Positions 26,397 through 45,323 of a DNA stretch of 64,000 bases are shown here, one piece after another (positions within the stretch are counted from its first letter, which is position 1; each line of letters begins with the position of its first letter). Origin of the DNA: Candidatus Bathyarchaeota archaeon. Its GTDB lineage: Archaea > Thermoproteota > Bathyarchaeia > Bathyarchaeales > Bathycorpusculaceae. The notes beneath the pieces were generated by a model. That model saw only the letters and a list, made by a program, of their open reading frames with translations. It was not told the DNA's origin and searched no databases. The position numbers and the translations under genes were made by a program. Location: NCBI GenBank assembly GCA_963772455.1, contig CAVYXJ010000005.1:1-64000 (forward strand), in the 5' to 3' direction.

Positions 26397-28574
26397 TTAT
26401 GCTGGTACATTTTCGGTTTTTTCTCGGATCCAATGACGATGTTGAGCGATTGCTGCTATGAAGGCTTCGTTGAATTCGCTGGTTGAACCCAATTGTGATG
26501 TGACAATACCTTTATCTGAAACCGTACCCTTGGTTTTCATGTCAACCAAATTAATGTTTTCTATGTTTGTCTCGGAAAGAAGTCTAATGGCTTCGCTTGT
26601 AGCTCCTATAGTTTTGCAATGTTTGAAGGCTTGGTTAATAAAATTAATGACATACCCATGTTTCTCAAGGTTGTCGACGTTTTTTTGTCCACCTGGGACA
26701 TAGACTGCATCGTAAAGGACAGAAGAAGCACTTATAAAGTGTCTATCTACGAGCGTTTGTTTTCCAGCTTCATCCTTGATTGTGCCAAGGTATTGGGATA
26801 CAATTTCTACTTTTGCACCCTGCGCTTCTAAAGCTGCTTTTGTGGCGGAGAAATCCTTTCCATTGAACCCATCCATAGCTAAAACTGCAACTTTTCGCGT
26901 TTTAACGCCCTTAACAGTATTAGCCATACTAAGAGCCTTTGATTCTTTTATTTGTGGGTTTTTTGTTGTAACGTGTGATTTGTTAGAGGGAGGGTTAACT
27001 CCGACGGCTTTAGCGATTTGAATAGCCAACTCTGGAGCTATGTTATCGAACATGTTAACAACTTTTTGGCGTGTTTCCTTACTTTTGAGTTTACCGATTT
27101 CAAATTGGAACGCTTTAATGATATGCTGTTTCTCGTGATCAGACATACTATTCCAGAACAACGTTGCCTGACTATAATGATCATCAAAGGTTTCACTTCG
27201 TTTTCTAATTGTTGTGCCGCTGACTTCTTGGGGATAGTGAACGTAGCTTTCTTTTTGATTTAGTTCAGGTTTAGGATAGTTGTTGTTGATGCTGTTGGGG
27301 TTGTAGGCTGTTTTGCCAATGTTTATGGTCATTCGGTGCATGCCATCTCTCTGGTTGTTGGCGACGGGAGAGAGGGTTTTGTTTATTGGGATTTCAGTGA
27401 AGTTTGGTCCACCTAGTCTAGTGAGTTGGGTATCTAAATATGAGAAGAGCCTACCCTGCAACAGAGGATCGTTACTAAAGTCTATACCTGGAACCACATT
27501 TGCGGGGCAGAAGGCAACTTGTTCAGTTTCGGCGAAAAAATTGTCTGGGTTACGATTAAGCACCATTTTACCAATGCGCTGTACGGGTATTAATTCTTCA
27601 GGCCACAGTTTGGTGGGATCAAGGACATCGAATTCGAATTTAAATTCATCTTCTTGGCAGATAATTTGGATTCCAAATTCCCATTCAGGATAATCACCTG
27701 CTTCGATAGCTTCCCAGAGGTCTCTGCGGTTAAAGTCTGAATCTTTGCCAGCTATTTGTTGCACCTCATCCCATACCAGTGAATGCATGCCTAGCAGTGG
27801 TTTCCAGTGGAACTTGACAAAGAAAGCTTTGCCCTCTTCGTTAACAAAGCGGTAAGTGTTGACGCCGAAGCCCTCCATCATGCGAAAACTACGGGGCAAT
27901 GCTCTATCGGACATCACCCACATTACCATGTGAGCAGTCTCCGGAGTGTTTACAACGAAGTCCCAGAATGTGTCATGCGCGGAGGCAGCCTGGGGAATCT
28001 CATTATCTTGCTCAGGTTTTACAGCATGAATGAGATCTGGGAATTTTATGGCGTCTTGTATGAAAAACACGGGAATGTTGTTGCCCACAAGGTCATAGAT
28101 GCCTTCTTCGGTGTAGAATTTGGTTGCAAAGCCACGGGCATCTCTGACAGTGTCTGAGGATCCACGTGAACCTGCAACTGTTGAAAACCTTACGAAAACC
28201 GGTGTTTTCTTGTTAGGGTCTGATAGAAACTTTGCCTTGGTGTATTGATTCATGGATTTGTATACTTGGAAGTAGCCATGAGCTCCTGAGCCTCTTGCGT
28301 GTACGACTCTTTCTGGGATGCGTTCGTGGTCAAAATGTGTGATTTTTTCTCTGAGATGAAAATCTTCAAGAAGAGTTGGACCGCGGGAACCGGCGCGCAG
28401 AGAATTGTCGGTGTCATTTATTTTTATGCCTAAATCCGTGGTTAGCGGCTTGTTTTTTGAATCTGCGCGAAAAGGCTCTACATTCTTCTCGATTGTTGGT
28501 TGATCTATTGTGTTAATTTTATTTTGGTTTTCTTTATCTGAGTTTTCTGTTTTCTTCAATGTATTCTCACTCAC
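26397..28574 (-). CDS. katE: Large-subunit heme catalase HPII with C-terminal DJ-1/GATase-like domain
   Basis: FDHERIPERVVHARG, RFSTVAGSRGS, DLVGNN, RLFSYLDTQ. Confidence 0.97.
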   Translation of the reverse strand: MSENTLKKTENSDKENQNKINTIDQPTIEKNVEPFRADSKNKPLTTDLGIKINDTDNSLRAGSRGPTLLEDFHLREKITHFDHERIPERVVHARGSGAHGYFQVYKSMNQYTKAKFLSDPNKKTPVFVRFSTVAGSRGSSDTVRDARGFATKFYTEEGIYDLVGNNIPVFFIQDAIKFPDLIHAVKPEQDNEIPQAASAHDTFWDFVVNTPETAHMVMWVMSDRALPRSFRMMEGFGVNTYRFVNEEGKAFFVKFHWKPLLGMHSLVWDEVQQIAGKDSDFNRRDLWEAIEAGDYPEWEFGIQIICQEDEFKFEFDVLDPTKLWPEELIPVQRIGKMVLNRNPDNFFAETEQVAFCPANVVPGIDFSNDPLLQGRLFSYLDTQLTRLGGPNFTEIPINKTLSPVANNQRDGMHRMTINIGKTAYNPNSINNNYPKPELNQKESYVHYPQEVSGTTIRKRSETFDDHYSQATLFWNSMSDHEKQHIIKAFQFEIGKLKSKETRQKVVNMFDNIAPELAIQIAKAVGVNPPSNKSHVTTKNPQIKESKALSMANTVKGVKTRKVAVLAMDGFNGKDFSATKAALEAQGAKVEIVSQYLGTIKDEAGKQTLVDRHFISASSVLYDAVYVPGGQKNVDNLEKHGYVINFINQAFKHCKTIGATSEAIRLLSETNIENINLVDMKTKGTVSDKGIVTSQLGSTSEFNEAFIAAIAQHRHWIREKTENVPA

Positions 28575-30177: not shown

Positions 30178-32394
30178 TTATTTATATTGCGGCAAACGTA
30201 CGGTAAAAGTTGTTCCTTTACCCTCTTGACTTTCAAAAGATACTGTTCCACCAAGTGATTCAGTCATTCGCTTAACTACAGGCAAACCAAACCCTTGACC
30301 TTTAGATTTAGTTGTGAACATTGGGGTAAACATCTTGCCTTGTATTTCTTTAGGTATGCCAACGCCTGTGTCCTTTACAGCTATCACTATATCGTTTGCT
30401 TCCTTATGCACCGTTATCGTTAGTTTGCCACCATTTGGCATTGCTTGCACAGCATTAGTCACCAAATTGTAAAAAATACGATTAAGGTAGTCAGGATCAG
30501 CCACAAGTTTTCTTGCTTCATCTTCGACCTCAACACTTACCTTAACGTTCTTCGGTAAACCGTTTTTTGTAACAACTTTTCGATGATCTGTTTTAAGTCA
30601 GCTTCTTCAGCATTAGGGTTAAGAGGTCTTGCGTAATCTTGTAGGTCTTGAACGATTTTGTTAATGTAGTCAATGTTCTTTTCAATTTCATTCAAGCTTT
30701 CAAGTATTGCTTCTTCTCTTCACCATCAGGCAGACGCAGCTAATTCTGACTTGGCTAAGTAGACGTCACCTGTTATAGCCTGCAGTGGATTACGAATGTC
30801 ATGTCCAACCATACCTGCAGTTGCGCCGATAGCGGCTAAACGCTCAGAATCTTGAAGTTGTTTTTCCAATTTTTTCCGTTCAGTAATATCCCTGAAAAGT
30901 GTCCCAACAACATTTTTGGAATAAAGGAAGTAGAAGCAGTCTAGCCACTTGTCAATATCCTTGTTATATAGCTCAACATGCTCTGATATTCCAGTTTTGG
31001 CAACTCTATCAGGAACCTCAAGCCAATGGAGTTCTTGGTTTGGAGAAATATATTTTGCAGTCTTGTCGAGAATGTCCTCTGCTTTAACACCTATGATTTT
31101 TTCGTAAGCATGGTTTACTTTCAAGAACTTATGGTCTATCGGTTTTCCGTTTTTATCGTATACCAACTCAATTAACTGGAAACCATCTTGGCTATTATCA
31201 AATACAGAGTGGTAGAGTTGCTCACTTTCTTTAAGTGCTTCTTCAGCTTTTTTGCGTTCAGTGATGTCTCTGAATATTAGCACCACGCCTGTGGTTTTGC
31301 CGTCTTGGTCTTTTATGGGTGCACCGCTGTCATCAATTGGAACTTCTCTATCGTCTTTTCGGATTAAGACAGTGTGGTTAGCTAAGCCAACAACCATGCC
31401 TTCTCTGAGAACTCGCTCTATAGGACTTTCAACCTCCAAACGAGATTGCTCATTGATAATGTTAAATACTGTCTTCACTGGTTTTGATAAAGTCTCATTT
31501 AGTAACCAACCCGTCAGCTTTTCAGCCTCACCATTCATAAATGCAATTTTGCCCGATGTGTCAGTGGCTATGACAGCGTCACCGATGCTTGCCAAAGTAG
31601 TTGCCCAACGCTGCTCACTCTCTCGAAGAGAGACTTGCACTTGCTCCAGGTCTGTTTTTGATGCAGTAACAGTTTTCAAATCGGCTGCCATTTTATTGAC
31701 AGATTTTGAAATATCCGCAACCTCATCATTCTTACCTGCTTCAAGAGTATAGTTAAGGTTCCCAGTTCCTATAACACCTATTCCGTTTTTGAGCTTGATA
31801 ATAGATCTAGCTGTTCTTCGATATGCAACAAGATAAATGGTAATGAAAAATGCCCCAAGTATGCTCAAAAGAGCGATTGTAAGAATCGTATTTGTTTGGA
31901 TAGCTTGGTTTGTTTGATCTCGTATATTTTGAGTTAACTGTTGAGAATCAAAAGCAAGGGCTTGTATTTGGACAGCCATCCTATTCCACTGCGTCTGAAA
32001 ACTGGGTAAAACACGAATATTCTCATTTCTCGGAAAACTAGAAAGAAAAGATGTAACCCCAGTAAACACTGTATTTAGATTTCCCAGATCCTTGCTTACT
32101 GTATTGATAAGTGCTTGTTGTTGGGGATCAGTAGAGTTTAATGATGCCTAGCTTATTGGAAAGTGTTGAAAACTTTGCATCCCACATAGTAGTGTACGAA
32201 TTGTCTTGGTAGAGGAAGTAATTGTTTGAGATATAATTTAGGTCGCTTGCTCCAGTTTGAATTTCATTTGTGAGAACACTTTGATTGTTCAACTCGTTTA
32301 TCTGTATCATCGTTACAGCTATTGATGACCCAATTATGATTGAAACGATGCTGAAAGTTATTATGCTGATTAAGAGTTGGGTCTTTATTCTCAT
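30178..32394 (-). CDS. Membrane sensor histidine kinase (TM-HAMP-PAS-PAS-HisKA-HATPase), several frameshifts
   Basis: HAMP NDEVADISKSVNKMA, PAS domains, H box GHDIRNPL, N/G boxes NAVQAM, DTGVGI, GQGFGL spread over three ORFs. Confidence 0.9.
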
Positions 32395-34815: not shown

Positions 34816-35004
34816 ATGCGCAAAAAAGAACATCGTCACACAGACACATTGGGTGCCGCGTCATCTCAAGATATACCAGTAAGAGGAGTAGAACCAAGTC
34901 AAATTCCATGTGAAGTCTGCGGAAGAACATTCAAAACTCACTCGGAAATGGAAAGACACAGAGACACAACGCACCATGAAACAAAAGGACACGAGGAAGA
35001 ATAA
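34816..35004 (+). CDS. C2H2 zinc-finger microprotein
   Basis: CEVCGRTFKTHSEMERHRDTTH; AGGTGA RBS. Confidence 0.8.
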   Translation: MRKKEHRHTDTLGAASSQDIPVRGVEPSQIPCEVCGRTFKTHSEMERHRDTTHHETKGHEEE

Positions 35005-35204
35005 TTATTCAGTTCACGCCCAATGATGTGGGATTATATAACTATCTAAACTAACCACAAACTTGCTTACTTCATATTTTGATGCAATTAAGAATTACAT
35101 CTCAGGTATTTGGTTAATGTCGATCTTTTTCTATCAGGACCAACATAAAAAAAGTAAGAAATGATTTTAAGATACTAATAATTCAGAAACTCTGCATACA
35201 TTAG

Positions 35205-36488
35205 GTGTCAATGTTGGTTGTTGAAAAAGCTGTACATTTTTATTCTTGTCAATTAGCGACATCTAAATCTGTACAACAACACAAACTCCGAAAGCGTATA
35301 GCTTGGTTGTCAAATAAAGAGGGACAGGGCAGAGAGTTCATCTCACTTTTCATACCTCCAAACACTCGAATAGATGAGGTAATTGCCAACCTGAAGAAAG
35401 AAGCTGATTTAACTATCAGGGAACCTGAGAAGGTTAAAGAACGATTACAAAGTTCCTTTAAAGCTGTAATCCTTAATCTAAAACAGGTTAAGGAAATTCC
35501 GGAAAACGGGTTAGCTCTATTTGCAGGATTTTTTCCAGTTAACGAATCTGAAAAAGAAGTATTAAGCTTAGAAGAGATAGTTCCACTTGAACCGTTTAAC
35601 GCCTATTCTTACTCAATTGGCACCCATTTTGATTTAATGCCACTTAGAGAAATGCTAAGAGACCAAAAAAATATTGGAATACTCGCTTTAGATTCTAAGC
35701 AAGCTAGTTTTGGATTATTAAATGGTGAACACATTGAAATTTTAGAGAATATTTCTTCTGGAATTTCCGGAAAATCTGGAAAAGGCGGGTCGAGCCAAAG
35801 AAGATATGAACGAGAACGCGACTCCTCAATCGAAAACTTCTTTCACAGAATTGCGGAACACGCAAACAACCAATATATCAAGAAAAAAGTTAACATTTTG
35901 ATAGTCGGGGGACCTGGTCAAACTAAAAATGATTTCTTGAAAGGTGAATATCTTCATTATGAACTGAATAATATGCTTCTAAACATAGTTGACACCCAAT
36001 CCGCAGGCAAAGAAGCGCTAAAAGAGATTCTAAACAAATCATCTGAACTTCTTAAGAATATGTGTGGACCTGAAGAAAAAAGAATCGTTCAGAATCTAAT
36101 GACAGAGTTGAGTAAACAAAGTGGTTTAGCCATTTATGGTTTAGATACAGTGTTAGACGCGCTTAGAAATGGTGAAGTGCAAATTGCTATAGTGACAGAT
36201 AGCACCGATATGATTGAAAATGTTGCAGTTTGCAAAAGATGTGGGTTTTCAAAAAGGAAGATAGCAAATAAGAAAATTCATGCCATCCGAGAAATGATTG
36301 AGAGTCCATGTGAAAAGTGCAATGGGGTTTCATATGAATATAGAGAGAAAGACATTGTTGATGTTTTAGAAGATATAGCTTCTCAAACTGATGCAAGCGT
36401 TGAGGTAATTTCATCCATTTCTGATGAAAAAGCATCACTCACAGCGTTGGGTGGCTTTGCAGCTCTTTTAAGATACAAATCAGGATAA
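35205..36488 (+). CDS. Divergent aRF1/eRF1-family paralog lacking NIKS and GGQ
   Basis: Three-domain aRF1 layout: ISLFIPP, PENGLALFAG, GKGGSSQRRYER, VGGPGQTK, CxxC/CxxC, LGGFAALLRY. Confidence 0.88.
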   Translation: MSMLVVEKAVHFYSCQLATSKSVQQHKLRKRIAWLSNKEGQGREFISLFIPPNTRIDEVIANLKKEADLTIREPEKVKERLQSSFKAVILNLKQVKEIPENGLALFAGFFPVNESEKEVLSLEEIVPLEPFNAYSYSIGTHFDLMPLREMLRDQKNIGILALDSKQASFGLLNGEHIEILENISSGISGKSGKGGSSQRRYERERDSSIENFFHRIAEHANNQYIKKKVNILIVGGPGQTKNDFLKGEYLHYELNNMLLNIVDTQSAGKEALKEILNKSSELLKNMCGPEEKRIVQNLMTELSKQSGLAIYGLDTVLDALRNGEVQIAIVTDSTDMIENVAVCKRCGFSKRKIANKKIHAIREMIESPCEKCNGVSYEYREKDIVDVLEDIASQTDASVEVISSISDEKASLTALGGFAALLRYKSG

Positions 36489-36792
36489 ACATTGTTTTTC
36501 AACAATTAATTTCAACAGATATAATTTTCAAAAGTTTTGAATCATAAAAATGTCTTTGTAAAAACTAAAGACATAAGTTGCCATACCGTTTTCAAAGCCG
36601 AATGATATTCTAAAAACAATTGTTTCTAGAACTATTTTGAATACTTGCATGATTTCAAGCTTGTTTCAACCTATAATTTTAAATGGAATGAAATCATTCT
36701 TTTTGATAAAAAATTTACTTTCAAATCCGTCAAAAAATTTGCAACTCTTGACACGGAGATCCAGAACGCTGAATGAAAGAGGAAAAGACCGC

Positions 36793-37491
36793 ATGAATAA
36801 TGAAGTAAAATTATTATCAATAGGGGTAATGATCGTTATTCTTCTATTAGGAGTTGCAACTTATTTTTCTTTTGAGGTTGTATCAGCTAAACAGATTCGC
36901 GTAGCTTGCGTGGGCGATAGTATTACTGAGGGAAGCGGTTATCCCTTCCAATTAAATTTGATGCTTGGTTCAAACTACGTCGTTGGCAATTTTGGGGTAA
37001 GCGGATCCACTGTTTCACTTGATTCTACGAAACCTTACATGAATGAAAGCAAATTCAAAGCAGCTTTGGATTTTAACCCTGACATTGTTGTTATTATGTT
37101 GGGAACTAATGATGCAAACACAGAAGTCACTCCAAATGAAAATGGCGTTGATTCTGATTATTCAAAGCTGGTTTCGGCGTTCCAACAACTTGAAGGTAAG
37201 CAACTAATTTGGATTGCAAAGTCACCGCCGATCTTCACAAACAATTCAAGTTACAGCAATACAATTCTCACCACGAATGTACTTCCACAAATTGACAATT
37301 TAGCTGATGAAATGAATTTACCTACAGTTGACATGTACAATATTCTCAGCGACCACTCGGATTATTTTGCTGATGGCATACATCCAACTCGTGATGGCGC
37401 CGCTTTGATTGCCACTAATGTTTACAATGCAATAACTTTGCCCGATGGATCTCCAGATACGTCTTACTTTGATTTTGGTTACTCAGATTGA
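36793..37491 (+). CDS. Membrane-anchored SGNH/GDSL hydrolase
   Basis: CVGDSITEG, NFGVSG, MLGTNDA, DGIHP; N-terminal TM. Confidence 0.92.
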   Translation: MNNEVKLLSIGVMIVILLLGVATYFSFEVVSAKQIRVACVGDSITEGSGYPFQLNLMLGSNYVVGNFGVSGSTVSLDSTKPYMNESKFKAALDFNPDIVVIMLGTNDANTEVTPNENGVDSDYSKLVSAFQQLEGKQLIWIAKSPPIFTNNSSYSNTILTTNVLPQIDNLADEMNLPTVDMYNILSDHSDYFADGIHPTRDGAALIATNVYNAITLPDGSPDTSYFDFGYSD

Positions 37492-37584
37492 TATTGGTTG
37501 GAAATTACTCTCTATTGCGGATATTACGCAAACTGTTTATAGTAAATCGTGAGTAAAGAAAGATACAGGTTATTGGGATCTTAA

Positions 37585-38649
37585 GTGAACCTGAATAATG
37601 AAAAATTAGTTCTCCCTGTTGATCTCATCCGTTCTGTGGCCATAATTTTAGTTATCTTGCTTCATGCCTCAACTCAGTCTTACTCGGAGGTTGATTTGAT
37701 GTCGCCACAAGGAGTACAAATCTGGTGGGCATCAAATATCTATGATTCTCTAGCTCGAGTATGCATCCCTTTGTTTGTAATGTTGGCAGGTGCACTTTTG
37801 CTTCAACCCAGCAAAGCAGATGAACCACTAAAAATCTTCTTCAAAAAAAGGCTATATCGAATCGGACTGCCTTTCATCTTTTGGGGGGCAATATATTTTG
37901 CTTGGCGATTCTTCGTAAATGGCGAAGCATTAACAACTAACTCTCTTATTCAAGGACTGTTAAATGGACCTTACTATCAATTTTGGTTTCTCTACCTAAT
38001 AATAGGATTATATCTCGTCACACCTATCCTGCGAGTACTAATAAAACATGCAGAACAAAAAATAATCAAATACTTAATTTCCATTTGGTTTTTAGGCACA
38101 GCTATAATTCCAATATTAACATTGTTCGGATCTTTCAATTTGAATGCCAATGTCTTCCTTTTGACAGGATGGTTAGGCTATTTTGTTTTAGGCGCATACC
38201 TAATGAAGGTACATTTGAGATCTTCAATTCTAATCACAGTTTTTGCAGCGGCTTTTCTCTGGACAATAATTGGGACATACCTAATCATTGGCAATTTAGG
38301 TGAAATATTTAATCAGTTTTTTTTATCAGGTTACAGCTTCAACATCATACTGGGTTCAACTGCATTATTCTTACTCATGGCTTCTATCCCAGCCTCTAAA
38401 ATAGAAAAAAGATTTCCAAATGGCAATCGAGTACTTAGAGTAATAAGTCAAAACACTTTGCCGATATTTCTATTCCATCCAATTGTACTGGAAACCTTGC
38501 AGAAAGGTTACTTAGGATTTGCCATAAACATAACATCAATTAACCCAATTGTAGAAATCCCACTTATCACCGCTCTCACTCTGCTCATCTGCCTCGCAAT
38601 AATTGTTCCTTTAAAGAAAATACCTTATGTAAAAAGAATCATTGGTTGA
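37585..38649 (+). CDS. Acyltransferase family 3 (membrane O-acetyltransferase)
   Basis: DLIRSVAIILVILLH, RVCIPLFVMLAGALLL, FWFLYLIIGLYL; multi-pass. Confidence 0.9.
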   Translation: MNLNNEKLVLPVDLIRSVAIILVILLHASTQSYSEVDLMSPQGVQIWWASNIYDSLARVCIPLFVMLAGALLLQPSKADEPLKIFFKKRLYRIGLPFIFWGAIYFAWRFFVNGEALTTNSLIQGLLNGPYYQFWFLYLIIGLYLVTPILRVLIKHAEQKIIKYLISIWFLGTAIIPILTLFGSFNLNANVFLLTGWLGYFVLGAYLMKVHLRSSILITVFAAAFLWTIIGTYLIIGNLGEIFNQFFLSGYSFNIILGSTALFLLMASIPASKIEKRFPNGNRVLRVISQNTLPIFLFHPIVLETLQKGYLGFAINITSINPIVEIPLITALTLLICLAIIVPLKKIPYVKRIIG

Positions 38650-38753
38650 AATAAAAAATTTTCAAGTCAATTTCTACAATAAATTTCTCTTACTTTTCTA
38701 GCAAAACTATTTCTTGAACAAAGTGGGGCTAATCTAAGGAAAAAAGCTGTACC

Positions 38754-40169
38754 TTGAAAATAATTAAAGAACAAATCAAGTTGCAAACAAACGCATTTCG
38801 CGAAAAATTTGAAAGAAATAACTTGAAAAAAATCTTTGCTGATAATTATCCTCTCTTAAGCATACTAATTGGCTACTTATTTGTAGCATTAACAATAGGA
38901 CCGTTCTACAATAGTGATACTGCAACTGAATACAACGCTGTATCGGGAGTATTGAAATATGGCTTGCCAAAACTGGATAACGGCAATTTCATTAATCAAC
39001 CCCCATTAGGATTCTATTCTCAAGCCTTTTTCTTCAACATGTTCGGTTCTTCAATAAGCAATGGCACGTCCTTGGTCACCTTGTTTGGGCTTGGATGCAT
39101 CGTCTTAGTATATGGAATTGCCAATACCGTGTACAATAAGACTACAGCTTTTTTCGCAGCTACCCTTTTTGCTTTTAGCCCATGGCATCTGATATTGTCA
39201 AGGACTTTCCTAATTGATGTTCAATGTCTCTTCTTTAGTCTGTTTTCGCTATTTCTTGGAATATTTGCCGTCCGCCGAGATTCAATTAAGTTATTTTTGG
39301 GTGGAGGGATCATTTTTGCAATGGCTTTTAGCACAAAATTATATGCTGTGTTTATTCTTATCCCAATTTTGGCTTTCTTTTTCTTCTATAGATCTGAAAA
39401 AATAAGACAAAAATTAATTTGGTTGGGTGCATTTTCCGCGCCAACATTGTTGTTTTCTTTTTTGTGGTATCAAACAATTGCGAAAGTCGGAATGGGAGCT
39501 ATTATTTTTCACACCGATTTTGCAATCCATGAATCTAGCGGTATAGTTCCTTCTTACTTTTTTGTAAGCAATTTCCTCACTAACTATGGTTTAGGCTGGT
39601 TATTTGTGGATGCAGCAATTCTATCACTATTACTATGTTTCACCCAAAAACGTTTATTTCGCAGATTTCTTGCTTTTGATATAATCAGCTTGTTAACCAT
39701 AATTTGCATATTAAGTGTGAACACTTTTTTGGGAGCAACCTTGAAACTTAATTCCCCTTATCTGACCGCGATAAAATATGATTATCAATCATTGCCTTTC
39801 TTTGCTTTCTTAGCGGGATCATTGATAACAAAAAGCATTTCACTCATTAATTTAAGCAAGCTAAAGAAAAAATTAACTAAAATAACCTATGTTTTTGCCG
39901 CTTCATTAGGATTAATCCTTGTGCCACTTTCAATAGGAATCAACATGAGTTATGTGAATCTATTTTCCACTTGGACCTATTTACTTTTCAAAGCGGACTC
40001 AAACATTAAAGTGGGGTATTCATTTTTTAGCGATACTCCAGTTGGTTTAAACAGCGTTCTGTTTAATTTTCAATATTTAGGGTATGCATTAATGCTATCA
40101 GGAATTGTTTGGCTAAGCAGGCATAAAATATTTTCATTACTGAAAACAGTAAATGTTAAAATCCATTAA
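38754..40169 (+). CDS. GT-C fold glycosyltransferase (family 39/PMT-like)
   Basis: DTATEY, NQPPLGFY, FSPWHLILSR...DV, AFSTK; multi-pass. Confidence 0.85.
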   Translation: MKIIKEQIKLQTNAFREKFERNNLKKIFADNYPLLSILIGYLFVALTIGPFYNSDTATEYNAVSGVLKYGLPKLDNGNFINQPPLGFYSQAFFFNMFGSSISNGTSLVTLFGLGCIVLVYGIANTVYNKTTAFFAATLFAFSPWHLILSRTFLIDVQCLFFSLFSLFLGIFAVRRDSIKLFLGGGIIFAMAFSTKLYAVFILIPILAFFFFYRSEKIRQKLIWLGAFSAPTLLFSFLWYQTIAKVGMGAIIFHTDFAIHESSGIVPSYFFVSNFLTNYGLGWLFVDAAILSLLLCFTQKRLFRRFLAFDIISLLTIICILSVNTFLGATLKLNSPYLTAIKYDYQSLPFFAFLAGSLITKSISLINLSKLKKKLTKITYVFAASLGLILVPLSIGINMSYVNLFSTWTYLLFKADSNIKVGYSFFSDTPVGLNSVLFNFQYLGYALMLSGIVWLSRHKIFSLLKTVNVKIH

Positions 40170-40490
40170 ATTAAATATTGAACAAAAACAAGTTACATAA
40201 TGAAGAGAATATATTTAAGAGAAGAAGAGTGAAAAATTTGCACTTCTTCTTCTCTTAACATTCTTCTACCTTTAACAGTTGCTCTTTGGATGAAGCAGAG
40301 ACTATGATCCTTTCATAGCTGAAAAAATCCGAAGGGCTTGATTCAACATGTTAGTGTAGGCGCAGATTACGATGCATTGGATTTTGTGGATGCAAAGATC
40401 GCCCAGTCTTATCCTCAAGTTAAGCCTATAGCCATTCCTTGTAAAAACAAGTCTTATTTATTTGAGGGACATACAAGAAAGTGATGAATT

Positions 40491-40862
40491 ATGCAAAACG
40501 ATACAGAAACAAAAATTAAGCAAGACCTTTTGGCTGAAATTCAAAACTTAGAACAAAATTACATAGTAATTCAGGGTTTTATCGCTGGAAAAGAATATGA
40601 GGTTACAGTAATCGGATCAAGCCTTCAATCATTCAAAGACAGCTTAAGTAGAGCAAGCGCATTTGTCCTTGCATTATACAACTTTAAAGGCAAAAGAGTC
40701 AACATTCCATGGGAACCGCTCTTCACTAACTTGGATTATGCACTCGCGACTTTATCAACTACTCCAAAGAAAGAAGCTGTCCAAGTAATCTTATCCATGG
40801 CTAAAGAACAGATTGAACAGGTATTATCATATTTCTCAGCTCTAAAAGAATCACTCAAATGA
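40491..40862 (+). CDS. Hypothetical helical protein
   Basis: 123-aa ORF with TATA-like and GTGA elements upstream. Confidence 0.65.
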   Translation: MQNDTETKIKQDLLAEIQNLEQNYIVIQGFIAGKEYEVTVIGSSLQSFKDSLSRASAFVLALYNFKGKRVNIPWEPLFTNLDYALATLSTTPKKEAVQVILSMAKEQIEQVLSYFSALKESLK

Positions 40863-41090
40863 CATTGATTCTCAGCAACGCTTAATCAGAATTAATGCCT
40901 TTTCTTTTTGATTATTATGGTTTCTTTTTCTGTAGCTCAAGTAGACTTAGTTTCGCAAATTTTCATTTTTGTTTTTCTTACTGTTGGATTATTTGTGGAG
41001 CGGGTTTCCTGCTGGATTCGAAGGCAGAGACTAACTGTATTCAAGGATGAAGAGTTAAGTATAACCCAAATCAAACATTTGTGAAGAAAG

Positions 41091-41456
41091 ATGGCATATT
41101 TACGTAACGAGAAAGAAAACCTCGAAGTATCATATCCATTGGAAAAGATTTGGGCTGTAATACCAGAAACCGTCAAGATTTTGGAATGGACAATAGAGGA
41201 GCAAGACGACACAGCCCACAAGGCTAAGATCAAATCGAAAGGTGGTTTCTTAGCCTACAATTCAATTCTTTTCCTTGAAGCGTCTTCGGTTGATGAAAAT
41301 ACAACTAAAATGTCTATCTATGCAGAAACACCAGTAACCACAATAACATCAATTATTGATTTCGGCAGGACCAGAGACCGCGTAGGTCAATTTATTGAAA
41401 CATTAGGTAGGCTTATGGAAAAGAAAGATAAACAAAAGAAATCTCAAGCGGATTAA
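41091..41456 (+). CDS. Hypothetical protein
   Basis: 121-aa ORF with alpha/beta pattern. Confidence 0.65.
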   Translation: MAYLRNEKENLEVSYPLEKIWAVIPETVKILEWTIEEQDDTAHKAKIKSKGGFLAYNSILFLEASSVDENTTKMSIYAETPVTTITSIIDFGRTRDRVGQFIETLGRLMEKKDKQKKSQAD

Positions 41457-41494
41457 GCAAAAATCTAATAACATTAGCAAATGTTTGATTATTT

Positions 41495-42461
41495 ATGATA
41501 CGTGTTCTCAACTTGGGCGACAATTCTGAAAGAACAGTGAGTCATGAAGAATTAACAGGATTAAACCTCTCGAGCCTTTGGCTAGAACTTGTTGACCCTA
41601 CTGAAAACGAGTTGAGATCGGTATCAAATGCAACACAGTTTCCCATTACTTTTTTGAGATTACCAACAACTGAAGGATACGTCAATTTACGATTAGAACC
41701 AGATTACGGTGTCATTAATTTTCTTAGTCATGCAAGACATTGTATCAACCAAAAAAACACACCCAGTTGTCCTAGTTTTTTCGAAGACTTTGCTCGTAAC
41801 CGTCGCGACAAAAGAAACTCAGAAAGTCATTGATATTGCTAAAGAACGAATGAGCAAAGCTAAAATAGACCCCCCATCCCACGTTATCTATTTTATCATT
41901 GATGAAATAGTTTCCTCTCATTATATTCAAATTGAAAAACTCGAAAACCTCACCGCAAAAATGGAAGAGGAAGTCGTTGAGAAAACCTCTGCTGACACAT
42001 TAAAGAAAATATTTAGACTTAAATCAAACATGGTTAGCTTTAACAAGCTACTTTGGTATGAACGAGGACTAATTTTTAATATTAAAAAATTCGAAGAAGT
42101 CCACTTGTCTCCAAAAGCCCGAGCCTTATTTGACACAACACATGAGGATTTGACTCGGCAAATAGACATAGTTGAAACTTATAGAGAAATACTTTCAGAC
42201 GCCATAAATGTCCATTTATCAGCAATTTCAAACAAAATTAATCTCTCAATAAAAGCTTTAACAATCGTCATATTCTACTTAACAATTGTAACTACAATTA
42301 CTTCTTTCCCAAACACCGTTGCCACCTTCTTTGGAATTGCCCAGTTTGGAAACACAAATATCCTAATTATCACAACTGCATTATTGCTATCAATTGTTTT
42401 ACCTCTCGTTTGGCTTTGGAAAAAGAGTTGGCTTACCTCGAAGAGACTTGATTACCAATAA
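41495..42461 (+). CDS. CorA-family divalent cation transporter, frameshift near 41720
   Basis: LWLELVDPTENEL, long coiled coil, SNKINLSIKALT, two C-terminal TMs; GMN signature replaced by GIA. Confidence 0.82.
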
Positions 42462-42569
42462 CTCTGAAAAATAATAATTCACCTCGCACCATCCAAAACA
42501 TATTCTAACTATAAAACAGGAAAGCTACTGCGATAACTTGGATAAACTAAACAATAATTTGGGAATAAC

Positions 42570-42995
42570 ATGAGCCAAAAACAACCACCCATAATCACTT
42601 ACAAAGGCAGAAGAATAGGCATCGTCATTTTAGTTGTTTCACAATTAATTATCGGAGCTATCCACGCTTTCTTCGGGTTACTTCTTCTTGTATATGAAAA
42701 CTTTTCGTTCCTTCCAACAACAGCATTTTACGACATCAACACTTTTATTTTTGGGTTGTTAGCTTTAGTATTCGCAGTCTTTATTTGGCAAGACAAAAAG
42801 ATTGGGTGGATAGGCACAATTGCAGTTTCGTTATTTGTGATTGCTGCAGATTCTTTGACTCTTCTAGATTTACCAAGTATCCCAGGGATTCCAAAGTTTG
42901 CAGGATTTACTGAAATAGCTTATAGTGTTTTGGTTGTGGGTTATTTGCTTCAAACCAGAATAAGAAGAAAATATTTCAATCATAAGAAAAATTAA
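42570..42995 (+). CDS. Hypothetical membrane protein
   Basis: Four hydrophobic helices. Confidence 0.7.
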   Translation: MSQKQPPIITYKGRRIGIVILVVSQLIIGAIHAFFGLLLLVYENFSFLPTTAFYDINTFIFGLLALVFAVFIWQDKKIGWIGTIAVSLFVIAADSLTLLDLPSIPGIPKFAGFTEIAYSVLVVGYLLQTRIRRKYFNHKKN

Positions 42996-43024
42996 ACTTC
43001 TAAAGATATTAGAAAAACCCTAAT

Positions 43025-43690
43025 TTATCTAAGGGTTGCATTGTTGGGGTAGCCTCTGCTTTCCCAGTAACCCAGATAATCAGGGTTATCTGTTAATTCA
43101 ATGTTGGTAATCCATTTCGCCCATTTGTAGCCATATTGGCTTTCAGCGACGAGTTCGAACGGGAAGCCACGTTCAGGTGGAAGTGTCAAACCATTCATCT
43201 TGTAAGCAATAATGATGTTTTTGTCTGTGATGTAATCGATCGGGAGCTCAGTTGAATAGCCATCGTATGCGTAAAAGATTGCTGCCACCGCACTCGAGTT
43301 GACGCCTGCTTCTTTCAGCAAATCGTTTACGAGAAATCCTTCCCAAAGAATCTTAACCGACCAACCTTCAACACAATAAAGGGTTACGACTTTTTCATAT
43401 TTCTGGAACTTGCTAAGTATCTCGTCGTAAGTGTAATTCACTGTTTTGTTAACCAATCCAGTTATTGACAAGCGATAAGTGGAGATGTCGACTTGTTGTG
43501 GTCCCTTAATCGAGTTTTCCCTAAAGTCTCCGATTGAAGAAAGGTTTTCGCCTTGGTAATCGCGGATTTCTCCGGGATACAACCTTTTAGGCTGATTCAC
43601 TCCATAGTAGACGGCTAAGAAAACAAGCACTAACAACATTATTGTTAAAGAAACCGCAATTAATTTTTGATAGCGATTTTTTTTCTCCAT
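43025..43690 (-). CDS. Sulfite-oxidase-family molybdopterin-dependent oxidoreductase
   Basis: LYCVEGWS, DGYSTEL, LPPERGFPFELV, YGYKWAKW, GYWESRGY. Confidence 0.92.
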   Translation of the reverse strand: MEKKNRYQKLIAVSLTIMLLVLVFLAVYYGVNQPKRLYPGEIRDYQGENLSSIGDFRENSIKGPQQVDISTYRLSITGLVNKTVNYTYDEILSKFQKYEKVVTLYCVEGWSVKILWEGFLVNDLLKEAGVNSSAVAAIFYAYDGYSTELPIDYITDKNIIIAYKMNGLTLPPERGFPFELVAESQYGYKWAKWITNIELTDNPDYLGYWESRGYPNNATLR

Positions 43691-43782
43691 TCTTATTCAG
43701 CTCAAAAAAGTAAGAACCCTTTAACCCACTGAATGGATGTCCATCATACTTAAAAAACCCAATCCTTATTCAAAAAATTTAC

Positions 43783-44229
43783 TTACCAAAAAATCGAAAG
43801 TTGATTCGCAGGATAACAAAATATTAAGCTTTTTTTTAGCGTACTCAAATACTTAGGCAATCCTTCGATGCATTGAATTTCTCTGCCTGCAATTGCGCGT
43901 AGAGCATGCCAAAACTTCAGGTTCACCAAGATTTTTTCCCATTCCAGGCTCTCTTGAAGATGTTTAGTACCTTCTTGTCCTCGTCGATCAAAATCAAGTA
44001 ACAGAATAACTTCTCTTGAACATAGCCTTTGGATTTCTACCGTTGCTTCAAGAAAAGATTTACCTCCAGTCTTCACCATTAAAATCGGGCCTTTAGCGCC
44101 CAATTCTTGAAGAGCATCAGCATCTTTCTTGCCTTCAACAATTAGTGGAGTACCTTCCGATGATTTTTCTATCAACTGTGTTATGATTTGCTCTATTTTC
44201 TCTAATTTTTCTTTACGGTGTGTAGACAA
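43783..44229 (-). CDS. Small Toprim-domain protein
   Basis: IVEGKKD and LLLDFDRRG. Confidence 0.9.
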   Translation of the reverse strand: MSTHRKEKLEKIEQIITQLIEKSSEGTPLIVEGKKDADALQELGAKGPILMVKTGGKSFLEATVEIQRLCSREVILLLDFDRRGQEGTKHLQESLEWEKILVNLKFWHALRAIAGREIQCIEGLPKYLSTLKKSLIFCYPANQLSIFW

Positions 44230-44234
44230 AACAG

Positions 44235-45323
44235 TTACCGGGTAATCTTTGCATTGCGTACAGTCTCTAAACAGTCTTTGGCTTCTTTATTATTTTCAAA
44301 GTAGCGTCTAACTGGTTCAAGGATGCTTGCAAGTTCAGTTGCAACACCATTTTTAAGATCCATCGGATGCAATTTGCCATCTGAATAGGCTGCCTCAAGT
44401 TCTTGGAAGCACTGGAACTCTGCATTTCCGCCGAATTTAGCTGGACGCTCTATTCTAAAGACTGGTTTTTCCCTGAAAATAATGTATTTGCAAATGTCCA
44501 TTATAGGATTGTACTTTACGGTTCTTTCTGGACAGAACGCTTTACTCATCTTTTGCTTGATTTCCTCTGGTGAATCATAAATGAAGATGCAGGTGTCTGG
44601 TTTACTCTTAGACATTTTTGCTGAAGCAACTGCTTCTCTTTCTTGTCCTTCGGGAATTGGCCAAATTCCAGGTTTAGCTAAGCCCTGCAACAAATGGTGA
44701 TGTACGGAAACCGGTTTCCAGCAACCGATTTTTTCTCCGATTTCTCTTCCAACCATGTTTGCTTTGCGTTGATCCATGCCTAGTTGACAAATTTTGACTT
44801 TCATATGGAAGATATCGGCCACCTGCATAGGTGTGTAGAGATAGTCGGAAACGTAGTGGGCTTCACCCTCTTTTCTACCGGCGATTTCAAGAGTTCGAGT
44901 TGTTCGAGCTAAAGTCAGGTTCTTGGCTATTATCACTGTTTTTGCCCAATAGTCAATGTCTTTGTAGAGTTCATCCGAATAAATGAATTCGACTTTATCG
45001 CCTGGCACCCCAAGGGCGAGCCAGGAATGTCTAAAGAGGTCTGCGGCTTTGCGGATAAGGGTTAAGTCGCCACCAAGTTTGTTGTTTAACCATGCATGCC
45101 AAGTTGCCAAGAACGCTTTGAAGTGGATTCCAGCTTCCGCAAAGTCTTTCATTTTATAGGCGCAAATAACGCCTGTTCCTAAATGTGCTAGACCAGAAGG
45201 TTCCCAACCGTTATAGGCGATTGGGTGTTCTTCAGTTTCTAGAAGCGCTCTCAAATCCTCTGCAGTGACTAATTCTTCAGTTGGTGGTCTGCAAATTAAT
45301 TCAATTTTCTTTTCTATGTCCAA
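44235..45323 (-). CDS. tyrS: Tyrosine-tRNA ligase (archaeal type)
   Basis: YNGWEPSGLAHLG, YTPMQVADIF, LGMDQRK, KMSKS, LHPMDLK. Confidence 0.95.
   Translation of the reverse strand: MDIEKKIELICRPPTEELVTAEDLRALLETEEHPIAYNGWEPSGLAHLGTGVICAYKMKDFAEAGIHFKAFLATWHAWLNNKLGGDLTLIRKAADLFRHSWLALGVPGDKVEFIYSDELYKDIDYWAKTVIIAKNLTLARTTRTLEIAGRKEGEAHYVSDYLYTPMQVADIFHMKVKICQLGMDQRKANMVGREIGEKIGCWKPVSVHHHLLQGLAKPGIWPIPEGQEREAVASAKMSKSKPDTCIFIYDSPEEIKQKMSKAFCPERTVKYNPIMDICKYIIFREKPVFRIERPAKFGGNAEFQCFQELEAAYSDGKLHPMDLKNGVATELASILEPVRRYFENNKEAKDCLETVRNAKITR

Follow-up and report, generated by a model that had tools for sequence, protein, structure and literature searches.

An apparently foreign aRF1 paralog of Bathyarchaeia without stop-codon-reading motifs but with an invariant GGxSQ loop: a candidate accessory ribosome rescue factor

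The 64,000 nucleotides analysed here (positions 1 to 64,000 of contig CAVYXJ010000005.1, assembly GCA_963772455.1, from a Candidatus Bathyarchaeota archaeon; hereafter the window) carry at 35205..36488 on the plus strand an uninterrupted open reading frame (ORF) of 427 codons counted from GTG 35205, the coordinates including the stop, whose product is a paralog, and probably a xenolog, of aRF1, the release factor of archaea. An initial annotation of the window had described it as a full-length protein of the aRF1 type, and we find that both its profile matches and its predicted fold agree with this across all three domains. The aRF-1 profile TIGR03676 is matched with 329.2 bits (cut-off 234.7) over model positions 2-402 of 403, and among the Pfam domains eRF1_2 (8e-33, 114 bits) and eRF1_3 (3.4e-16) score over their cut-offs while eRF1_1 falls just below (2e-4, 21.8 bits vs 23.8). 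The Pelota profile TIGR00111 gave 67.3 bits against a cut-off of 177.65, and the Rv2629 hibernation family NF052289 gave 40.6 bits against 320. Pfam acVLRF1 did exceed its cut-off on the M domain (39.3 bits vs 27.1), where it overlaps the stronger eRF1_2 match. An AlphaFold2 model built on an 84-sequence alignment (mean pLDDT 81, pTM 0.63) found in Foldseek the aRF1 structure 4af1 as its top match (E 7.5e-36, TM 0.71/0.73), followed by many eRF1 chains, with Balon chains (E 2.6e-18, 14-19% identity) and Pelota (8e-16) both well behind. The N domain of the model superposes on the eRF1 N domain 2llx with a TM of 0.84 and a root-mean-square deviation of 2.1 Å, and as modelled the paralog keeps an eRF1-type reading domain and not a Pelota-type Sm barrel.

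To place the sequence motifs we aligned 117 full-length family members jointly with 31 canonical aRF1s, and on these rows every motif statement of the initial annotation was confirmed: NIKS is gone (LTIREPEK), the GTS place reads GRE, the YxCxxxF place reads YSIGTHF, and the M-domain tip reads GGSSQRRYER. The loop at the NIKS place (ADLTIREPEK, residues 67-76, 35403..35432 on the plus strand) is one residue shorter than the canonical loop and hypervariable, with 82 different versions of the 10-mer among the 117 family sequences and the NIKS motif itself in 0 of 120. Canonical aRF1s have I72 and K73 in 100% of sequences; in the family the commonest residue at 72 is Met, at 36%, and K73 is found in 73%. 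The Thr of the GTS place, 97% in the canonical sequences, is Arg in the window (GQGRE) and Met, Lys or Arg in the family, and the Cys of YxCxxxF, present in all 31 canonical sequences, is Val in 88% of the family (consensus Y-E-V-D-D-H-F) and Ile in the window, where the motif occupies residues 136-142 (35610..35630, plus strand). The decoding pocket is partly kept, with E66 in 93%, Y136 in 94% and F142 in 99% of the family.

The M-domain tip behaves differently. In the window it reads K-G-G-S-S-Q-R-R-Y-E-R-E-R-D (residues 193-206, 35781..35822, plus strand), and K193, G194, G195, S197, Q198, R199, R200, Y201, E202 and R205 are each found in all 117 homologues, with R203 in 116 of the 117 (99%) and not a single insertion or deletion within residues 183-210 across the 148 rows of family and canonical sequences. 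Only the place of the GGQ Gln varies: position 196 is Ser in 66 sequences, Gln in 39, Glu in 6, Trp in 4 and Met in 2, with at least 13 state changes on the family tree. The statement that the GGQ motif is lost is therefore right for the window, which reads GGS, but needs amending for the family, where GG and SQRRYE are invariant, the third position alone varies, and 39 of the 117 still have Gln. The Ser at this place (TCG, 35790-35792) had been judged an unlikely read error, and the pattern indeed recurs across the whole family. Further along, the four-Cys zinc-ribbon insert of the C domain (C343, C346, C369 and C372; 36231..36320, plus strand) has all its Cys residues in 100% of the family and 87-97% of canonical aRF1s, and the C-terminal GGFAALLRY (residues 416-424, 36450..36476, plus strand) is conserved in the family alignment; together with the GGPG turn of the GP loop these are the elements that had been listed as retained, and the alignment bears this out. 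In PMC2613156 GILRY is linked to eRF1-eRF3 binding and a homologous AFGGIAAILRY is noted in aRF1.

Compared with canonical aRF1 (TIGR03676; structures 4af1 and 3agk/3vmf), the paralog thus has the same three-domain architecture and length, its best fold match, and the GG pair, S197, R200, R203, GGPG turn, zinc ribbon and C-terminal GGxAAxLRY in common, but it fails at NIKS, at the GTS Thr and YxCxxxF Cys and at GGQ, and it adds a conserved N-terminal extension of 17 residues. Six positions conserved in at least 90% of canonical aRF1s fall below 60% in the family, namely T43 (GTS), I72 (NIKS), Q196 (GGQ), G231, G271 and E291. Moreover, the ranking of the domains is inverted: by median identity the host aRF1 keeps its N domain best (N 0.92, M 0.88, C 0.78), whereas the paralog keeps it least (M 0.67, C 0.59, N 0.55). 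These comparisons uphold the earlier view that the stop-codon-reading elements were lost while the M-domain tip and the C-terminal domain were conserved, and they show that in this family the codon-reading side chains and the classical catalytic Gln are dispensable, while the loop directed at the peptidyl-transferase centre, the putative rRNA-binding arginines and the C-terminal partner-binding motif are not. By alignment the catalytic-centre loop is even more conserved in the paralog than in real release factors, with K193, Q198, R199, Y201, E202 and R205 all fixed.

Loss of the GGQ Gln is not confined to this family. Among representatives of aRF1 clusters formed at 50% identity, several lack it and yet have NIKS and YxCxxxF, reading GGW (P0141, P0159, P0188, P0220, P0239, P0263 and P0156), GGF (P0174), GGA (P0244) or GGS (P0205), and one further representative, P0146 (GGE), has neither NIKS nor YxCxxxF. 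If such proteins are the sole aRF1 copies in their genomes, then not every release factor of archaea has the GGQ Gln.

The genome itself (2.45 Mb in 24 contigs, 92% complete, 3.4% contamination) encodes a canonical aRF1 on contig C7 (509.7 bits; TASNIKS, YRCDSRF, GGQSARRYER), to which the window paralog is 32% identical, and Pelota on contig C12 (214.6 bits), so that both proteins whose presence elsewhere in the genome had been proposed as a check were found. We take this to indicate that the window protein is not the release factor of the cell, and suggest that it should not be annotated as one. The Pelota gene (C12:62715-63780 on the minus strand, L006:1480-2584) is split between two reading frames, the change falling at a stretch of five A (L006 2433-2437), more likely through a homopolymer assembly error than a real frameshift. 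A second copy of the paralog, 91% identical to the window gene, lies on contig C15 within a 10-kb block that is present twice (window 35022..45022, 92.3% nucleotide identity by blastn to C15:4033-14000, with the same gene order). This block begins about 180 nt 5' of the paralog, and the arrangement upstream of it differs between the two copies; the C15 copy may be a true second locus or come from a co-binned close strain. The block also carries a class-I tRNA synthetase of the Trp/Tyr type and a Toprim protein, each present as two diverged copies in the assembly.

To trace the origin of the paralog we built a careful maximum-likelihood tree (72 rows, LG+C20 PMSF), in which the 15 paralogs included group as one clade (support 100/100) whose stem measures 0.79 substitutions per site. 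This clade is sister (100/97) to four aRF1s with canonical motifs (P0286, P0123, P0125 and P0126), and the named member of the P0286 cluster bears the label 'Nitrososphaerota archaeon'. The host genus and order have their canonical aRF1s elsewhere in the tree, behind a 100/100 branch of 0.59. Constraining the paralogs to group with the aRF1s of the host lineage cost 82.65 log-likelihood units and was rejected by the approximately unbiased (AU) test (p = 5.35e-6), a test that involves the long stem and a group defined after the first tree had been seen; duplication within the lineage was rejected as an origin on this result. In a search of 401 genomes of the phylum with P0286 the best identity was 58%, and the donor is not among them. 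Within the genus the paralog tree largely follows that of the canonical aRF1, and the genomes lacking the paralog (G006, G008, G017 and G024) form one clade, a pattern that fits a single acquisition followed by mostly vertical descent with losses. Among the 72 rows of the tree, which include no VLRF-1 sequences, the paralogs fall inside the canonical aRF1s. Taken together these results suggest that the paralog derives from a horizontally acquired archaeal aRF1, its sister aRF1s being those of an uncultured, Nitrososphaerota-like lineage. Such a horizontal origin had not been anticipated in the initial annotation.

Many aRF1s with canonical motifs (P0123, P0125, P0126, P0127, P0156 and about 40 further long matches) carry inteins (Intein_splicing and LAGLIDADG), those of the sister group included. 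The inteins sit after GGQ, with Ser as the +1 residue, or before the Cys of YxCxxxF, and both sites adjoin the two residues that are altered in the paralog; in P0156 a GGW directly precedes the intein.

We found that the paralog is maintained by purifying selection, under a looser and different regime than the host aRF1, and not by drift, as the check on the ratio of nonsynonymous to synonymous substitution rates (dN/dS) had been meant to establish. By the Nei-Gojobori method, with which many pairs were synonymously saturated so that the ratios are rough, dN/dS was 0.11-0.19 in those orthologue pairs whose dS is below 1.5, and the canonical aRF1 of the host gave 0.03-0.08 in the same genome pairs. 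The two copies in the genome of the window differ with dN 0.043 and dS 0.219 (ratio 0.20; N domain 0.28, M 0.12, C 0.21). Over 151 genome pairs the median dN of the paralog was 2.9 times that of the host aRF1, with a median identity of 0.60 vs 0.86.

The family is known from one family of Bathyarchaeia only, and is patchy there. In a large protein search with 772 matches at E ≤1e-10, the 120 matches listed were all at least 61% identical to the window protein, carried the name aRF-1 or release factor subunit 1 if they were named at all, and came mostly from Bathyarchaeia where an organism was stated; the 117 full-length members among the matches listed are 61-87% identical to it overall. An orthologue of at least 49% identity is found in 17 of the 24 other genomes of the window genus, and across the family as defined by GTDB the paralog occurs in 22 of 200 other genomes and 10 of 70 genera, or in 16 of 99 genomes at least 90% complete when the window's own is counted. 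Sixteen genomes from other families of the same order gave a canonical-type match alone, at 33-36% identity, and in the rest of the class the paralog was found in 0 of 252 genomes from 33 other families. An exhaustive search of protein clusters formed at 50% identity returned one full-length family representative along with fragments; fusions were not seen at this level of identity. A profile scan of IMG/VR viral contigs gave no family member, its 11 loci all being distant a/eRF1 homologues (24-40% identity). A search for sequencing runs sharing words with this DNA listed 21, every one a DNA metagenome of soil or permafrost (word shares at most 0.29) and none of RNA, a result that carries no information on expression. 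Reading frames are intact in all 19 genomic copies analysed; in one relative, G009, the copy contains two TAG codons in frame.

At its 5' end the gene appears to bring its own signals. The initial annotation had started the gene at 35205, and while the full-length frame is open from there, this GTG lies inside a GGTG box resembling a Shine-Dalgarno (SD) sequence (35204-35207). In 21 aligned upstream regions the conserved family start is a TTG placed 8-9 nt after GGTG; in the window an ATG at 35211 immediately precedes this TTG (35214), and a database copy, P0002, begins MLVVEK and is 425 aa long. The true start is probably ATG 35211 or TTG 35214, two to three codons after the GTG. Within this element (35204..35216, plus strand) the aGGTgt and TTG columns are kept in at least 60-80% of the 21 loci. 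About 20 nt 5' of the box lies a putative promoter element (TTTTAAGATACTAATAATTC, 35165..35184, plus strand) resembling a B recognition element (BRE) and TATA box, and the upstream consensus over the 21 loci is tttt.agaaAc..A..TAAaT. The strict form A[ACT][ACT]N[AGT]ATAA[AT] stands at a fixed distance in 10 of the 21, the window variant having no strict match. The promoter motif noted earlier in front of the gene thus stands, with a BRE/TATA-like AAC.AATAAAT followed by GGTG before the gene in many loci, and because these elements travel with the gene we consider it likely to be a self-contained transcription unit. The first 15 or so codons (..EK..HF..CQ.; window 35211-35255 and 20 related loci) show strong conservation in their nucleotides as well (CTGAAAAAG, CATTTT, TGCCA); the family-specific 17-residue extension that bears this EK..HF..CQ pattern is conserved as protein and disordered in the structure model.

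The surroundings of the gene point in the same direction. We clustered the ORFs of 21 loci and annotated 20 immediate neighbours with Pfam, and no family stood alongside the gene in more than 6 of the 21, the commonest being a GDSL hydrolase (6/21). A beta-CASP RNase, a tRNA-intron endonuclease and an IF-2B-family protein were each found at three loci and AlaX at one; considered as operon partners, these were rejected and read as housekeeping neighbours and not as a system. Fumarase, a permease and CorA were among the other immediate neighbours. The wider surroundings of the gene in the window comprise a catalase (26397-28574), pieces of two-component systems, two NMT1-type binding proteins, a GDSL hydrolase, an acyltransferase and a PMT-type glycosyltransferase, which do not look like a coherent stress operon. 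The stress-gene region proposed in the initial annotation could not be sustained, as the neighbourhood differs in almost all of the 21 loci and the catalase lies 7 kb off, behind unrelated genes. Just upstream of the paralog, at 34816..35004 on the plus strand, an ORF of 62 aa that encodes a single C2H2 zinc finger (Pfam zf-C2H2 2.9e-5, slightly below cut-off) has a GGTG box of its own; it adjoins the paralog in the window alone, lies 3 kb away on C15 (94% identity over 50 residues) and was not found in the 19 other loci. Two neighbouring genes are split, CorA (41495-42461, plus strand) into two overlapping ORFs of 112 and 250 aa where the C15 copy is a single ORF of 321 aa, and a sensor histidine kinase (30178-32069, minus strand) into a HAMP/PAS and a HATPase_c piece. 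These may be indel errors or pseudogenes, and with possible indels so close by, the intact frame of the paralog is worth noting.

Its profile score and fold put the paralog in the aRF1 family, and by architecture or score it does not appear to be a Pelota, a Balon or a VLRF-1 family member. We found no published description of the Bathyarchaeia family or of its motif pattern, although the supplementary lists of PMC12626013 and PMC6514570 may include it. With aVLRF-1 and acVLRF-1 it has in common the GGxSQ catalytic-loop motif, as that motif is defined in PMC6514570. In the same source's account aVLRF-1 has a long coiled coil at its N terminus and no Pelota-like domain at its C terminus, and acVLRF-1 is without the codon-binding domain, whereas the paralog has all three classical domains and no coiled-coil extension. 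Because the architecture differs, eRF1_2 scores far higher and the paralog branches inside the canonical aRF1s, the likeness in the loop is apparently convergent. Pelota/Dom34, itself a paralogue of aRF1, works in the A site with no stop-codon reading, has aEF1A as its carrier in archaea and resembles the paralog in its M and C folds; as characterised in PMC2613156 and PMC6514570, however, it has an Sm-like N domain and no GGQ tip, where the paralog has an eRF1-type N domain and an invariant GG loop. Balon/Rv2629, as described in PMC10901736, is similarly a three-domain A-site protein of the aeRF1 type without NIKS and without the GGQ Gln, but it is bacterial, carries an HP motif and a lasso loop where the paralog has its GG loop, and is 12-19% identical to the paralog in sequence. 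A further parallel in circumstance is aRF1-2 of Methanosarcina, likewise an extra aRF1 beside a functional one, which belongs to another lineage and is set beside the paralog by description only. In the survey of PMC12626013, two aRF1 copies occur in 4.3% of sampled archaeal genomes and the Methanosarcina copy is a lineage-specific duplication, while the present family is sister to a foreign aRF1 lineage.

What, then, might such a protein do? ArfB/ICT1 and PrfH are bacterial codon-independent hydrolases with the bacterial release-factor type of fold, in which GGQ is kept and the decoding domain was lost outright. We tentatively favour a comparable job for the paralog, that of a stop-codon-independent A-site factor, delivered by aEF1A, which releases peptidyl-tRNA on stalled ribosomes; the class we infer is an accessory rescue factor and not a termination factor. 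The resemblance to the bacterial enzymes would be one of function, an analogy only, since the folds are unrelated and the paralog relaxed its decoding domain instead of deleting it. In such a scheme aEF1A-GTP would bring the paralog to the A site, as it does aRF1 and Pelota, where it would bind whatever codon is present, and the GGxSQ loop would enter the peptidyl-transferase centre. The nascent chain would then most likely be released from peptidyl-tRNA on ribosomes stalled without a stop codon, with catalysis supplied by the position-x backbone and/or by the invariant Gln that follows two residues later, after which ABCE1 could split the ribosome. Retained chemistry is plausible because, in the mechanism outlined in PMC6742477, the backbone amide of the Gln is the catalytic group in bacterial release factors. 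The assumption that no GGQ means no hydrolysis was too strong.

Several points weigh against this proposal. That the Gln side chain is not required in the family could equally mean that hydrolysis has been given up, and Frolova is said to have found in 1999 that both Gly residues are essential in eRF1. A second aRF1 copy examined in a 2009 study was reportedly inactive. Pelota already covers rescue in archaea, no conserved partner gene (ligase, nuclease or hibernation factor) was found across the 21 loci, and the paralog is dispensable, since it was not found in 178 of the 200 genomes of its own family. The chief competing account, which we consider rather unlikely though serious, is a non-catalytic A-site plug or hibernation factor in the manner of Balon. 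NIKS and the Gln side chain are lost as they are in Balon (PMC10901736), an accessory gene of patchy distribution would fit such a plug, Burroughs and Aravind proposed negative regulation of translation for Gln-less relatives of aeRF-1, and there is the weak NCBIfam match to the Rv2629 family. This match is nevertheless far under its cut-off, the fold fits aRF1/eRF1 much better than Balon, and no HPF-type, other hibernation or stress gene is a conserved neighbour at the 21 loci. Moreover, in the published accounts the GG loop of Balon, Pelota and most baeRF-1 families is missing or poorly conserved and variable in length, while that of the paralog is invariant and of fixed length; we favour a retained function in release because nothing in a pure plug would call for a GG turn that is invariant and free of indels.

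The other accounts seem weaker still. A competitor that modulates termination, arriving in the A site with slow or inactive hydrolysis and so delaying termination or favouring read-through or recoding, would fit a protein that has retained its predicted surfaces for the GTPase partner and the ribosome and lost its decoding and Gln positions, and the GGQ mutant eRF1(AAQ) has, by the titles of structure entries, been used to trap termination complexes. We think this distinctly improbable, since a factor without stop-codon recognition would compete at every codon and not at stops specifically. The genome also appears to have no pyrrolysyl-tRNA synthetase, none being found with the TIGR02367 profile (best match 23.3 bits against a cut-off of 178), and in the PMC12626013 survey aRF1 copy number is not linked to pyrrolysine use. 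A release factor of altered specificity, one that recognises some of the stops or a sense codon, could draw on the eRF1-type N-domain fold and on the persistence of E66, Y136 and F142 in the decoding pocket, but a specific reader needs a fixed reading head, and the many variants at the NIKS place, the choice of Met, Lys or Arg at the GTS place and an N domain that is the least conserved of the three leave this with very little in its favour. Hardly credible is a decaying or functionless duplicate, a view already disfavoured: it could appeal to the roughly threefold faster evolution relative to the host aRF1, to the loss of the gene from many genomes and to the two in-frame TAG codons of the G009 copy, and it is opposed by dN/dS values of 0.1-0.2, by the 19 of 19 intact frames, by many positions that are 100% conserved in 117 sequences at 61-87% identity, and by the conservation of the gene's own promoter and SD elements.

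For archaea and eukaryotes the accepted view is that a ribosome which has stalled with no stop codon is rescued by being split, with Pelota/Dom34 and ABCE1, and not by direct hydrolysis. It is possible, though we hold it with some doubt, that in this family a foreign aRF1 was turned into a stop-codon-independent peptidyl-tRNA hydrolase, an archaeal counterpart of ArfB/ICT1, in whose GGxSQ loop the methylated Gln side chain of GGQ is dispensable. If so, eRF1-type release chemistry does not need the GGQ Gln, and rescue by direct hydrolysis exists in archaea beside the Pelota-ABCE1 route. The paralog therefore offers a ready-made test of whether an eRF1-type factor needs the Gln side chain and of whether archaea have codon-independent release, as well as a natural experiment in functional divergence, with the GTS Thr, the NIKS Ile and the GGQ Gln among six canonical invariants that were set free. 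Annotation pipelines name it 'peptide chain release factor aRF-1', which inflates counts of aRF1 copies and hides the difference; in its host, a soil archaeon, it is additional to the normal termination factor.

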